A stretch of 64,000 nucleotides of DNA from an uncultured delta proteobacterium (GTDB taxonomy: Bacteria > Desulfobacterota > Binatia > UBA9968), in assembly GCA_963728565.1 (NCBI GenBank), contig CAVSLC010000022.1, positions 32,495 to 96,494 on the forward strand, read 5' to 3'. Shown here piece after piece: positions 4,421 through 8,956 of this stretch. The notes beneath the pieces were generated by a model. It saw only the letters and a list, made by a program, of their open reading frames with translations, was not told the DNA's origin and searched no databases. The position numbers were made by a program, and so were the translations under genes. Every line of letters begins with the position of its first letter. The first letter of the stretch is position 1.

Positions 4421-5179
4421 TCACCCGGCCCGCATCTTGAGCAGAGTCGGAATATCCATCGTTTCCTCATACAGCCGCAATTTTTTTTCCTTGCGCTGCG
4501 CGGCGAGCATGGCCATGCGGTCGGCGAGTTCATTGCCTTCGGTGCCTACATGCCCGGCGACATGAGTGAGCGTGAGCTTGTCTTTTATCCGGCGGTAGAT
4601 TGCATAACAGTCCTGGATGATTTTCAGGTTCTTGATCTCACCGCCAGGTTTCTTCCAGCCCCTCTTTTCCCAACCGGAGGCCCAGAGGCGAATACAGTTG
4701 ATGGAGTACGCTGAGTCGCTGCACACCTCGACGCTGTTGCCGGCCTCGAGCTCTGCTTCGGCCATACGCAATGCATGATAGAGCGCGTTTAGTTCCGCGG
4801 TGTTGTTGGTTCCTATGGGGTTATACAGGCCGTACCACAATTCGGCGAGTTTGCCCGCTCGGTACACTACGATACCGGAGCCGGCGTTGCCTGGATTGGG
4901 ATCACAGGCACCGTCACAATAAATGGTGACATCGAACCGATGAGCGATGTGCTCGGCACGTCGTTCGCTCGCCGATGCATTCGATATTTGCTTGCTAGAT
5001 GGCTTGGACGGAGTGATTGCGGAGCCGCCACTGCGGAACGCTTGCTCCGCTTCCGCCCGGGTTGCGAAAGATTTGTAGCGCGCGCCGGCATACCCCATCA
5101 CCGCGCGCCGGGTCGTCGCCCAATCGGTGAATACACCCGTCTGCCGTCCTGACCACACTACGTAATACTTTTCCGCCAT
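4421..5179 (-). CDS. rnhA: Ribonuclease HI with N-terminal hybrid-binding (caulimovirus viroplasmin-like) domain
   Basis: KYYVVWSGRQTGVFTDW...YKSF hybrid-binding domain; YCDGAC, TNNTAEL, SDSAY, HVAGHVGTEGNELADR. Confidence 0.9.
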   Translation of the reverse strand: MAEKYYVVWSGRQTGVFTDWATTRRAVMGYAGARYKSFATRAEAEQAFRSGGSAITPSKPSSKQISNASASERRAEHIAHRFDVTIYCDGACDPNPGNAGSGIVVYRAGKLAELWYGLYNPIGTNNTAELNALYHALRMAEAELEAGNSVEVCSDSAYSINCIRLWASGWEKRGWKKPGGEIKNLKIIQDCYAIYRRIKDKLTLTHVAGHVGTEGNELADRMAMLAAQRKEKKLRLYEETMDIPTLLKMRAG

Positions 5180-5294
5180 GCTGAGTCGATTTGGCTCCTG
5201 CGTCAAAAAATCTTCTTACCTGTCTGATGTGAAGAAACTGTTATCATAGATCCAGAGCGCGGCAGAGCTGAAAGCAGTCGGAGTCGGAAATTCC

Positions 5295-5405
5295 TCCCGC
5301 CAAGGCGCAAAGTCGCTAAGTTTATTAGGAAAGATGAAAACTTTACGAATGATTCGCACTCTCAATCTCCGAACTTCTCGAGCCTTTGCTCTTTGCCCGA
5401 GAGAC
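5295..5405. repeat. Degenerate intergenic inverted repeat (REP/MITE-like)
   Basis: ccgccaaggcgcaaagtcgctaagtt is imperfectly complementary to aacttctcgagcctttgctctttgcccgaga. Confidence 0.35.
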
Positions 5406-5505
5406 TCCGAGATTTCGTTGAGGTTTTCTCGAAAGTTTGTGCTGCGCGCCTTCAGCGCCCGTGCGGCGCAATCTCCGGTTCCCTGATTCTAACTGGCGAA
5501 ATCGG

Positions 5506-5538
5506 TGAAAACTTTGCGTCCCCCGGACGCGTTACTCA
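5506..5538 (-). promoter_or_regulatory. Putative bacterial SECIS element
   Basis: UGAG(U)AAC-GCGUCC-GGG-GGACGC-(AAA)-GUUUUCA hairpin; G-only apical loop 20 nt after the in-frame UGA at 5547-5545. Confidence 0.6.
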
Positions 5539-7032
5539 GGTGCCTCAGAACGTTCGGTAATGACTTTGCCCTTCCGGTGGAGGTTCGGCATAGGCGGCAA
5601 ACTCCGGCTGATCGTCGAAAGGCCGCGCTAGGATCTTCAGCAGCGTTTCGAACGGCGCGTAATCGCCTTCCTCCACCGCAGCACTCAAGGCTTCCTCAAC
5701 TCGATGATTGCGGGGAATGAACGCGGGATTGGCGCGCCGCATCGCCGGCGCACGGTCGGACTCTGCCACTGCTTCGCGCGAGAGCCGCGCCCGCCAATGT
5801 CCACTCCATCGGTCGTAGGCCGACGGATCGGCAAAGAGGCTTCGGATTCGTTCATGTTCACCTAGAGCCGCATCGGCGAGGTAACGAAAAGCCAACGTGT
5901 AATCAACGCCGTTGCCCTCCATCGCCGCGAGAAACTCAGTCGCAAGGTTAAGATCGGCCTCTTCCTCAGTGAATAGTCCGAGCTTGGCGCGCATGCCTTT
6001 TACCCAGTAGCTTTCGTAACGTCCTGAAAAGGCGTTAACCACCTCCGTGGCGCGCGCGATGGCGCGGTTTGCATCCTCATCGATCAGGGGCAGAAGCGTT
6101 TCGGCCAGCCGCGCCAGGTTCCACTGCGCGATCCTTGGCTGATTGGCGTATGCGTAGCGGCCCTGAGTGTCGATGGAGCTGAAGACCGTGGCTGGATCGT
6201 AATGATCCATAAAAGCGCAGGGGCCATAGTCGATCGTCTCACCGGATATCGTCATATTGTCGGTGTTCATCACACCATGGATGAAGCCCACGTGCATCCA
6301 GCCGGCAACGAGCGCCGCTTGTTTGTCGCACACCCGCTCGAGCAAGCCCAGGTAGGGGTTGGCCTGGCCCTTCAGCTCCGGATAATGGCGATCGATCACA
6401 TAATCCGCCAGTTGCCGCACCTTGGCCTGCTCACCGCGGACGGCGAAAAATTGGAAGGTGCCGACACGGACGTGGCTGGCAGCAACGCGCGTCAAGACTG
6501 CGCCGGGCAGGGCTCGCTCGCGATAAACAGGCTCGCCTGTGACCACTGCAGCAAGTGCTCGCGTCGTCGGGATGCCAAGCGCATGCATGGCTTCGCCGAT
6601 CAGATATTCGCGCAATACGGGTCCGAGTGCTGCCCGACCGTCGCCTGCTCGCGAAAACGGAGTGGGACCTGAGCCTTTGAGCTGAATGTCACGGCGCCGC
6701 CCATAACGATCGACCACCTCGCCTATCAGCAGCGCTCGCCCATCGCCGAGTTGAGGCACAAACCCGCCGAACTGATGCCCGGCATAGGCTTGCGCCAAGG
6801 GCACGGCTCCCTCGGGTGTTTCGTTGCCAGCAAAGATCCTGGCGCCCGCGTCCGAATCGAGAGCATCGGCATCCAGTCCCAATTCTTCAGCCAGCTGATG
6901 GTTTAACTTTATGATCCGAGGCCGCGCCACTTGCGCCGCTTTCCATGGGACATAAAAACCCTCGAGTTCGCGGGCATAGGTGTTGTCGAAGGCGAATAGT
7001 TCGGCGCCGGAATCGTTAGTAATCTGGTTCAT
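5536..7032 (-). CDS. selO: Protein adenylyltransferase SelO/YdiU, probably with C-terminal selenocysteine (YRTF-U-GT)
   Basis: [48 protein letters not shown]; 3' end reads TAC CGA ACG TTC TGA GGC ACC TGA. Confidence 0.92.
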
Positions 7033-7234: not shown

Positions 7235-8128
7235 ATGCGAGCCGCTTTAATCGTCATTCTTATCCTGGCTTCGATTGCGTTTGGATCTCAAGCCGCACAA
7301 TCCCAAACCGGGCTCCGCTTCCCCAACTCAGCACGTGACGCCTGAAGTGGCTCGGTACTGCCGGTTGGGAAATTCAGATTGCTCAGACCAAAATCCTGAT
7401 CGATCCCTTCCTCACGCGCCAGCAGGCGGTCGCCTCGGAAGAATGGACGACCGACGAAGAAGCGGTCCTTAAAGTTATCAGCCGGCGCCGACTACATCTT
7501 CGCCGGCCACAGTCACGCTGATCATATCGGTGACATCCCATTCATCGCCAAGCGCTTCGGGGCCAAGATCCTCGGCTCCAGAACCACCGTGAATCTCTCG
7601 TTGAGCGCCGGTGTCGATAAAGCCCAATTGACGACCATTAGCGGCGGCGAGAAATTGGATTTCAAAGACTTCTCGGTGCAAGTGATTAAAAGCCAGCACG
7701 GCATACTCACCCGCGATGGTCAAAAACGGCAACCCAGGTCCGCGGAAATCACCCGCCCGCTGTCGGGTCCGATTCTCGGAAAACATTTCGTCGAGGGTGG
7801 AAGTTATCTTTACTACTTCACCTTCGGTAAACTCAGCCTGCTGCACCAAAGCACCGGCAACTTCATCGAAGAGAATCTCCAAGGCTTAGAGCCCGACATC
7901 GCCATTCTCGCCGAGAACAGCAACTATGATTGGACCGAGGCTCTCAAGATTCTCCGTCCGAAAACGGTCGTCGTCCATCACTACGACGACTGGCGGGTTC
8001 CATTGTCGAGCGGCATGACCGCAGCTGTTAGAAGAAGAGCGCAACGCTTGGAGAAGGACGTCAAGTCCGTGGATCGCAACATCAAGGTGATCATCCCGGA
8101 GTTTCTGCAGACGATCACGTTGGAATAA
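7235..8128 (+). CDS. Secreted MBL-fold metallo-hydrolase (frameshifts near 7340 and 7490)
   Basis: Signal peptide; LKWLGTAGWEI, ILIDPFL, GHSHADH, HHYDD; AGGAGG RBS. Confidence 0.8.
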
Positions 8129-8140
8129 TACCGCGCGCTG

Positions 8141-8956
8141 CTAGATGATCGTTTTGCGCGGCATGGACGCTCCGGGGAACAGCCCGTGCTTGGCAAGAAA
8201 CTCAATCATAAAGCGATCGAACAGCCAAGGTTGCTCTATCTGGCAAGCGTGGCCGGCGCCCGGCAATGTTCTCAACTCACAGTTCGGTATGCGCGCTTGA
8301 AGTGCGAAAGCGCGTTGATGGCTGTTGTCTTCGCTGCCGGTCAGAATGATCGTCGGGCAGGCGATACGCTCATGATGCTCCTCGGGGTAGGGCTGCGCCA
8401 GTGCTTGGAATTGGTGGATGATCGTCTGCACGTCGGCGTGTTGATTGCGTTCGGTGAAAAGGTTCGCAAAGAAATGCGCCAGCGGAGTAGTGCGAAAGGC
8501 CGCGCTTAGATCTTCGAACGTGTAGGCCCAGCGATAATCAATCCCATTGGCCGTGTAGTTGGCGATCCTTCCCTTGGTGAATTCCTTGCTCGGATTGTAA
8601 CCGGTGCCCGACAACACGAGTGCCGCCGTTTTGTCGGGACGAAGATGGTACATGTGGGGCGCGAGCGACGAGCCGACCGAGCAGCCGACCAGAACCGCTT
8701 TTTCACCGGGTAGCGCATCGTCGACGGCTTCCCAACAGGCCTCGGCCATGTCGTTCATCGTCAGGCCGGGCTGGGCTTTAGGCGAGCGCCCATAGCCCGG
8801 GATGTCGATGGCAATACACCGGTACCATGTCGAGAGATGCGCCATTTGGAAAATCCAGCAAGATTGGTCCATTGGATTGGGATGAATAAAAGCAATCACC
8901 GGCCCCGAGCGTCCCATCCGCTCGTAATAAAGAGGTCCATCAATGTGTTGCGCCAT
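8141..8956 (-). CDS. Alpha/beta-fold hydrolase
   Basis: DIPGYGRS, GCSVG nucleophile elbow, GSED, AGHAC. Confidence 0.88.
   Translation of the reverse strand: MAQHIDGPLYYERMGRSGPVIAFIHPNPMDQSCWIFQMAHLSTWYRCIAIDIPGYGRSPKAQPGLTMNDMAEACWEAVDDALPGEKAVLVGCSVGSSLAPHMYHLRPDKTAALVLSGTGYNPSKEFTKGRIANYTANGIDYRWAYTFEDLSAAFRTTPLAHFFANLFTERNQHADVQTIIHQFQALAQPYPEEHHERIACPTIILTGSEDNSHQRAFALQARIPNCELRTLPGAGHACQIEQPWLFDRFMIEFLAKHGLFPGASMPRKTII

Follow-up and report, generated by a model that had tools for sequence, protein, structure and literature searches.

A bacterial SelO gene with a predicted C-terminal selenocysteine and a SECIS-like hairpin beyond its stop codon in a soil Binatia-type lineage

Until 2025, SelO was held to carry selenocysteine (Sec) only in higher eukaryotes, and a passage of a 2020 review gives the residue as Cys in "all prokaryotes". 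Passages in two reviews citing Sreelatha et al. 2018 describe a regulatory disulfide between Cys272 and Cys476 of Escherichia coli SelO, the position of Cys476 being Sec in higher eukaryotes. Mammalian SelO has a CxxU motif, according to a review passage. For bacteria, a single report has been published, and it is a computational prediction: passages on deep-Sep from 2025 name bacterial "selenoprotein O-like" proteins, with Desulfosediminicola ganghwensis IMCC35004 as the case (PMC12013277), and a 2026 review contains the entry "Selenoprotein O-like protein, PF02696, WP_136798779.1" (PMC13188914). Here, we analysed a stretch of 64,000 nucleotides (nt) from an uncultured delta proteobacterium of the class Binatia (assembly GCA_963728565.1, contig CAVSLC010000022.1, positions 32,495 to 96,494), hereafter called the window. 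Its minus strand carries a SelO/YdiU gene in which an in-frame TGA occupies the codon of the conserved C-terminal Cys, and a hairpin resembling a bacterial Sec insertion sequence (SECIS) lies behind the true stop codon. Judging from the sequence comparisons described below, we consider it highly probable that the gene truly encodes a selenoprotein, in which Sec (U496) takes the place of the C-terminal Cys of SelO.

The Desulfosediminicola case resembles the window in several respects. Both proteins belong to PF02696/COG0397, both genes have an in-frame TGA where homologues have Cys and a SECIS-like structure just downstream, and both are computational predictions; the comparison covers the family, the TGA/Cys pairing and the presence of a downstream structure. 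The lineage is different, the closest relatives of the window's protein being titled Candidatus Binatia or "Deltaproteobacteria bacterium" metagenome-assembled genomes (MAGs) from soil. The passages on the Desulfosediminicola case make no mention of Sec and Cys forms mixed within one clade, of hairpin remnants in TGC forms or of a hairpin lying wholly past the stop. A preliminary description of the window, made from its letters, had assumed that a Sec-containing bacterial SelO would be new, an assumption overtaken by the passages of the 2025 report (PMC12013277). Literature searches pairing Binatia with selenoprotein and Binatota with selenocysteine returned no paper linking the two. The window's SelO can be regarded as a well-supported predicted member of a recently predicted kind, in a new lineage; together with 24 relatives it represents a second, well-sampled bacterial lineage (soil Binatia-type) of putative Sec-SelO. 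What this lineage adds is matched Sec/Cys pairs, hairpin remnants in TGC forms and a SECIS candidate that is wholly untranslated.

Mammalian SELENOO, a mitochondrial protein, belongs to the same family and has its Sec near the C-terminus, in review passages at the position of E. coli Cys476. Its CxxU motif has no counterpart in the window, where Arg stands three residues before U (Y-R-T-F-U). The eukaryotic SECIS is a kink-turn element located in the distant 3′ untranslated region and bound by SBP2. In contrast, the window has a 15-nt hairpin of the bacterial type whose loop lies 20 nt past the UGA, presumably to be read by SelB. The Sec of the window's SelO appears to have arisen independently of that in SELENOO, because the outgroups and the ancestor of the clade have Cys. 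The solved SelO proteins of E. coli and Pseudomonas syringae (6eac, 6k20, 6iii, and 9jym) are full-length homologues (E about 1e-106 to 1e-108) in which the motifs of the catalytic region align, as does the C-terminal Cys of 6eac. The E. coli enzyme differs in having Cys instead of Sec and in the position of its partner residue: its Cys272 (FIC-NHSD) stands opposite Phe284, and the invariant Cys of the window's protein lies 12 residues earlier. Compared with bacterial SECIS (bSECIS) elements of the E. coli fdhF type, which lie within coding regions according to passages of PMC13188914, the wholly untranslated hairpin of the window would be an extreme C-terminal case.

At the 3′ end of the gene, the minus strand reads CAT TAC CGA ACG TTC TGA GGC ACC TGA GTA ACG CGT CCG GGG GAC GCA AAG TTT TCA, and its coding part translates as H-Y-R-T-F-[UGA]-G-T-[UGA]. 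These letters agree with the preliminary description, in which the open reading frame (ORF) track ended SelO at YRTF* and the DNA ran on as TTC TGA GGC ACC TGA. Its point that gene callers shorten the protein by just three residues holds as well, the ORF as called having 495 aa and the frame with TGA read as U 498. The Sec/Cys residue is then third from the C-terminus (U496-G-T-stop). The protein matches PF02696 (SelO) with E = 6.5e-118 and 394.9 bits against a cut-off of 22.8, over profile positions 7-464 of 466, and the YdiU family model NF000658 with 584.3 bits against a cut-off of 431. Its scores fall below the cut-offs of the equivalog models NF045949 (451 vs 850) and NF040880 (421 vs 900), and by these profiles it therefore belongs to the family but is not an equivalog of the enzymes from Pseudomonas or E. 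coli. None of the models that it matched in NCBIfam release 20.0 describes a selenoprotein subtype. Alignments with 6eac, 9jym, 6iii, and 6k20 run from end to end (E = 2.2e-108 for 6eac to 7e-106) and place the C-terminal Cys of 6eac opposite U496. As seen in the alignment to 6eac and 9jym, the kinase-like motifs are kept, namely the Lys of the LKG.G stretch, HGVMNTDN and the metal-binding Asp of D-[YF]-G, with IDYGP in the window's protein opposite FDFGP in the solved structures. The assignment of catalytic residues follows a review passage and background on the family; the AMPylase role of the window's protein is a prediction.

The read-through SelO protein served as query against every species-representative genome of the window's order (123 in all). 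A SelO match was found in 48 of them, with a readable C-terminus in 44; G467, G470, G502, and G518, which have N-terminal pieces only, were left out of the C-terminus counts, G467 being one of the 48. Codon 496 is TGA in 25 of the 44 genomes and TGC in 19; GGN ACN and then a stop come next in every case. The expectation that TGA-GGN-ACN would be conserved in relatives in alignment with Cys is thus borne out at the very same codon. Among 80 named GenBank contigs, which overlap the genomes of the order survey and form no independent sample, 12 have TGA and 54 read TF-C-GT-stop with TGC or TGT, as had been stated earlier for the C-termini of many bacterial SelO proteins (TFCGT); the pattern left 13 unread and gave one spurious match. 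All 12 TGA contigs encode proteins at least 77% identical to that of the window, under the titles Candidatus Binatia, "Deltaproteobacteria bacterium" and "uncultured delta proteobacterium", with a single Pseudomonadota and a single Candidatus Acidiferrales. The 54 Cys contigs include every proteobacterial relative at 60-72% identity. In an even sample of the phylum (401 genomes, 23 with SelO), a C-terminal TGA occurs only in the window's genome. One further genome of this sample, G251, had been flagged with one TGA, which proved to be a stop upstream of the start codon and no Sec site.

The codons that follow the TGA in the 25 distinct sequences are GGC (13), GGT (9), or GGG (3), and then ACC (23), ACA (1), or ACT (1). 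They vary in third positions only and therefore look translated, which indicates that coding continues beyond the UGA. The final stop is TGA in every one of the 25 predicted Sec forms; in the Cys forms it is TGA (15), TAA (2), or TAG (2). The invariance of the final TGA could reflect constraint from an RNA element or mere shared ancestry.

Some genomes of the order hold unusual SelO copies. The SelO match of G491 (C13:143336-144815) and G497 (C14:2683-4178) falls into 2-3 pieces in different frames, with the TGA and the hairpin kept; these splits are frameshifts or assembly indels. Two TGC-form genomes carry an additional fragment corresponding to SelO residues 419-498 (71-73% identity) at 3-5 kb from the full gene (G494:C9:295146-295385 and G493:C29:435912-436151), possibly a partial duplication. 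G462 has a second full-length SelO (C946:829-2304) of 61% identity with no internal stop, either distantly paralogous or acquired.

The hairpin accompanies the TGA codon. All 25 TGA forms contain GCGUC-CGGGN-GACGC or a variant of it (GCGUC-CGUGC-GGCGC in G024 and CGCGUC-CGGGCC-GACGCG in G491), starting 16-18 nt after the U of the UGA. Though non-coding, each core position is 90-100% conserved in the 23 ungapped TGA forms. Over hairpin nt 17-31, the mean pairwise identity is 0.84 in the TGA forms (n = 25, two indel-shifted sequences included) and 0.39 in the TGC forms (n = 19). The corresponding values are 0.41 and 0.27 for the next 15 nt and 0.25 and 0.24 for the following 15-nt block; for third codon positions of the last 30 codons they are 0.67 and 0.61.

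These hairpins were compared with the published bSECIS model. The legend of Fig 2 in PMC13188914 gives a loop of 3-9 nt, an upper stem of 4-16 bp and a UGA-to-loop distance of 16-37 nt; it also asks for a G as the first or second nucleotide of the loop, with G or U as the usual next one, and for a minimum free energy (MFE) of ≤ −7.5 kcal/mol. Loop and stem sizes lie within these ranges in 25/25 TGA forms, the relatives having loops of 5-6 nt and stems of 5-6 bp. The loops are GGG, CGGGN, CGUGC, or CGGGCC, with the required G in all 25. The distance from UGA to loop is 18-20 nt throughout (20 in the window), and the second UGA, at 11 nt, falls outside the range of 16-37. Both the core helix and a 47-nt segment were scored for MFE; the 47-nt segment reaches ≤ −8.5 kcal/mol in every TGA form. 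None of the 19 TGC forms qualifies: 13 have no candidate hairpin, and in 6 it is weak (−4.8 to +2.1 kcal/mol). Of the two checks suggested earlier for the hairpin, comparison with a SECIS model supports it, with qualifying hairpins in 25/25 TGA and 0/19 TGC forms; covariation lends it no support, the core being invariant. On these data, the hairpin exceeds chance when relatives are compared, whereas neither its folding energy nor covariation sets it apart.

In the window itself, the MFE structure calculated by RNAfold (positions 5495-5550, minus strand) has a lower stem of UGAG, a bulged U and AAC paired with GUUUUCA, an upper stem GCGUCC/GGACGC, and the loop GGG. The loop begins 20 nt past the first UGA and 11 nt past the second, which is paired within the lower stem. 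It is the same hairpin that the preliminary description had drawn, including the bulged U, the G-only loop, both spacings and the second UGA in the lower stem. The core helix (6-bp stem, 3-nt loop) has −8.3 kcal/mol. Among relatives, both the sequence and the register of the lower stem differ; we treat only the 15-nt core as an established part of the predicted element, the lower stem not being conserved in register. Two copies of the 15-nt core pattern are present in the 4.53-Mb genome, against none of its reversed control. The second copy, on contig C23, lies inside an ordinary ORF with no upstream TGA. With two copies in the genome, one of them a chance match within an ORF, the core is therefore no dispersed repeat; the idea of a genome-wide SECIS consensus was rejected as well. 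A Rfam search of window positions 5350-5700 at a permissive threshold gave only a chance snoRNA match (E = 1) and no SECIS family. An intrinsic terminator was also considered and rejected: the terminator scan made no call at the hairpin, AAAG precedes UUUU in the window, and most relatives have no U-run. The scan thus gave no sign of a hairpin acting only as a terminator, which would have spoken against the preliminary description.

Sec decoding depends on dedicated machinery, and selA, selB, selD, and the tRNA-Sec gene (selC), named as the genes to expect in the preliminary description, are all present in the window's genome. The tRNA-Sec scores 74.2 bits and is called SeC(tca) by ARAGORN; selA, selB, and selD (607, 396, and 382 bits) form an adjacent cluster. 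The selD gene (G000:C28:38569-39495, plus strand) has its own in-frame TGA (...VKAAG-TGA-AAKLGP), and SelD is itself a predicted selenoprotein; this TGA, in a G-U-AAK context, argues that Sec decoding is in use in the window's organism. The fold downstream of the selD codon is unlike the SelO hairpin, with a GUGCAA/UUGCAC stem and a loop about 36 nt past the UGA. The window, the sel cluster and the tRNA-Sec lie on separate contigs of a bin with 80.55% completeness and 5.84% contamination. Binning error is no explanation, because G027 and G495 each carry the TGA-form SelO, selA, and selB on one contig. Across the order, selA was found in 110/123 and selB in 106/123 genomes, tallies that include G018, G012, and G488, all without a SelO match. 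The TGA-form genomes have selA in 22/25 and selB in 20/25 cases, and the TGC-form genomes have selA in 17/19. In the family f3 (genus g20), no genome has a SelO match (0/28), yet selA and selB are present in 28/28, many of the genomes being complete or nearly so.

The proposed mechanism is as follows. When the first UGA enters the A site, SelB-GTP with Sec-tRNA(Sec) would be recruited through the loop of the hairpin, a G+C stem of 5-6 bp with a G-rich loop 20 nt past the UGA and entirely behind the true stop. Sec would be inserted, Gly and Thr added, and translation would end at the second UGA, which at 11 nt from the loop would be too close for recoding and act as a stop. With no more than two codons between the Sec codon and the stop, the hairpin remains wholly untranslated. 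A bacterial SECIS is reported to work untranslated provided that its spacing is kept. SelB binding and selenium incorporation at U496 are what we infer from the sequence. A truncation of three residues by gene callers is invisible in annotation, and tools that expect a bacterial SECIS inside the coding sequence may miss one placed after the stop.

In the E. coli enzyme, the C-terminal residue takes part in regulation through its disulfide with a Cys of the activation loop, and by analogy U496 may be a regulatory residue. A candidate partner is Cys272 of the motif DYGPC, which is present in 22/22 Sec forms, 15/15 Cys forms, and 7/7 outgroups (44/44) and is replaced by Phe in E. coli and P. syringae. 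The switch, if analogous, would probably be a selenenylsulfide between Cys272 and Sec496. A further-reaching reading is that the gene gives two products. In selenium-replete cells, a full-length protein with a Sec redox switch would be made; in selenium-poor cells, the product would end at F495, intact apart from the missing regulatory residue, and selenium status would thereby set whether this stress-response AMPylase is open to redox regulation, in a clade with one gain of Sec and SECIS and repeated reversions. We regard this combined proposal as speculative and rather doubtful. If it were true, the clade would be a natural experiment in Sec/Cys exchange.

After the last six residues had been trimmed, a maximum-likelihood tree was built from 37 full-length ingroup proteins (22 Sec and 15 Cys) and 7 outgroups; G473, G491, and G497 (Sec) and G010, G022, G008, and G464 (Cys) were left out as partial. 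The ingroup forms one clade (97/94), and all 7 outgroups have Cys. Sec and Cys forms are intermixed within the clade, with 11 changes on the best tree, at least 3 of them forced by well-supported branches; a quick tree gave 9 changes, 4 of them forced. This distribution suggests that Sec and the SECIS were gained once in the clade from a Cys ancestor and that several Sec-to-Cys reversions followed, the single origin being proposed because all Sec forms share one hairpin in one position. Recombination between related genomes could alternatively account for the mixture. Agreement with the 15-nt core at 11-13 positions, typically ACGAGTCAGGGNGACGC, is seen in four of the 19 TGC forms of the ingroup; no outgroup form (n = 56) exceeds 10. 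These matches would fit decayed remnants of a SECIS if change ran from Sec to Cys.

Sec and Cys versions of SelO coexist within the clade at 77-98% identity, and Cys forms from the window's own genus (G007 and G002) are 86-87% identical to its predicted Sec form. Such matched natural pairs make it testable what Sec does for SelO that Cys cannot. One difference between them may lie five residues before the Sec/Cys site. An additional Cys is found there (C-Y-[RQ]-T-F-C) in 11/15 Cys forms, 0/22 Sec forms, and 0/7 outgroups, which hints at a helper thiol being required by a Cys tail though not by a Sec tail. The partial sequence of G473 has both the −5 Cys and the TGA. Under phylogenetic control, a link between the −5 Cys and a Cys at the Sec/Cys site was not shown, the supported branches yielding just 3 independent pairs (p ≥ 0.5).

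An in-frame TGA without any recoding would also result from an error of sequencing or assembly, or from a mutation that had recently inactivated the gene in one MAG. The genome is a metagenome bin of the completeness and contamination given above, and the four sequencing runs compared are Logan contigs, not raw reads of the window's own sample. An independent contig from a soil metagenome (run X3, record 22) covers positions 5342-6130 with 22 differences, among them 5542 and 5551 at synonymous sites and 5533 and 5535 in the spacer, and leaves both TGAs unchanged. The contigs of run X1 stop short of the 3′ end of SelO. Contigs from the RNA libraries X15 and X17 match parts of the gene at 92-99% identity, X17 record 14 ending at 5543, 2 nt past the TGA; they are evidence of neither transcription nor the 3′ end. 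With the same TGA in 24 other genomes (25 distinct 3′ sequences in all) and in the independent soil contig, we give an error practically no credence, in agreement with the earlier argument that a chance substitution to TGA at this codon is less likely.

Several results weigh against a Sec codon. The window's hairpin has no thermodynamic signal (z = 0.74, with 151/200 shuffles folding equally well or better), and in 12/25 TGA forms the core helix alone misses the threshold of −7.5 kcal/mol that it reaches in 13/25. Covariation is absent too: four of five core pairs are invariant, one changes from U-A to U-G, and 315/500 shuffles reach the observed score; the outer pair of the core is C-G in 7 forms, U-A in 1, and unpaired in 17. 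With an invariant core, no covariation is measurable, and base pairing is thus not separable from sequence conservation. Just two codons follow the UGA, which makes the evidence for continued coding thin; the six nt could instead be constrained as part of an RNA element, and the 25 TGA sequences are relatives, not independent samples. Neither selA nor selB was found in 3/25 TGA genomes, namely G517 (66% complete), G473 (93%), and G497 (92%). Sec machinery was rejected as a discriminator between TGA and TGC genomes, being near-universal in the order; its presence is therefore necessary but not discriminating. As to the role of the residue, the E. coli partner Cys272 aligns to Phe284, where the chain-to-native numbering offset of 13 is taken from alignment coordinates, and the regulatory mechanism of E. 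coli is therefore not simply transferable.

The missing folding and covariation signals would suit a first UGA that is a real stop, with SelO made without its last three residues, including the regulatory Cys, and the hairpin serving as a 3′-end element for stability, termination or protein binding. The hairpin is outside the ORF as called, and a short U-run, AAAGUUUUCA, comes after it in the window. Release factor 2 (RF2) termination at UGA competes with Sec insertion. Some truncated product is thus expected in any case, since this competition is always present, and the recoding efficiency given in a passage of PMC4513850 is 30-40%. Against a real stop, a general 3′-end element should not hinge on one codon, and the hairpin is present in 25/25 TGA and 0/19 TGC forms. 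GGN ACN TGA is kept in all 25 with third-position variation only, the negative terminator scan and the rarity of a U-run in relatives do not suit a terminator, and the position and loop of the hairpin fit the published SECIS model. A stop there would also remove exactly the residue that 54 named relatives conserve as Cys. A real stop thus seems improbable to us. Still less probable is a reading of the UGA by another route, through near-cognate tRNA-Trp or tRNA-Cys or a suppressor tRNA, with W or C at 496. UGA is the leakiest stop codon, and the identity of the inserted residue is deduced here from sequence alone; a conserved hairpin at SECIS distance would be left unexplained, the full Sec machinery is present, and the codon aligns with Cys, the usual counterpart of Sec. 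A Sec-containing bacterial SelO, as put forward in the preliminary description, is supported by the co-occurrence of TGA and hairpin in relatives, the Sec machinery and the third-position variation.

The features of the locus are collected in Table 1.

Table 1. Coordinates of the predicted Sec-SelO gene, its SECIS candidate and neighbouring ORFs in the window
Feature	Position	Strand	Basis
SelO/YdiU full coding sequence, TGA read as U; 498 residues, M1...F495-U496-G497-T498 then stop	5536..7032	-	ORF and read-through translation
SelO ORF as called, 495 aa, ends ...HYRTF	5545..7032	-	mechanical ORF list
In-frame TGA, proposed Sec codon, residue 496, at conserved C-terminal Cys position	5545..5547	-	read-through translation and relatives
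Gly497-Thr498 codons GGC ACC, after UGA	5539..5544	-	third-position-only variation in relatives
True stop, second TGA, 11 nt before loop	5536..5538	-	sequence; TGA in 25/25 Sec forms
Predicted SECIS core hairpin GCGUCC-GGG-GGACGC (relatives GCGUC-CGGGN-GACGC), wholly 3′ untranslated	5516..5530	-	G000:C22:38010-38024
Extended SECIS-like stem-loop with lower stem UGAG-U-AAC...GUUUUCA	5506..5538	-	MFE structure
Residue 491, column of the extra Cys in relatives	5560-5562	-	alignment
Cys272 of DYGPC, activation-loop region, invariant; putative redox partner of U496	6217..6219	-	protein alignment
RNase H1	4421-5206	-	PF01693 and PF00075
ORF, 134 aa	7478..7882	-	
ORF, 179 aa	7589..8128	+	
Alpha/beta-hydrolase gene	8141-8956		

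A functional link to SelO is not evident for its neighbours, the RNase H1 and the alpha/beta-hydrolase. Two ORFs on opposite strands overlap between window positions 7478 and 8128, neither with a Pfam match. The RNase H1, which lies downstream of SelO, has an N-terminal hybrid-binding domain.

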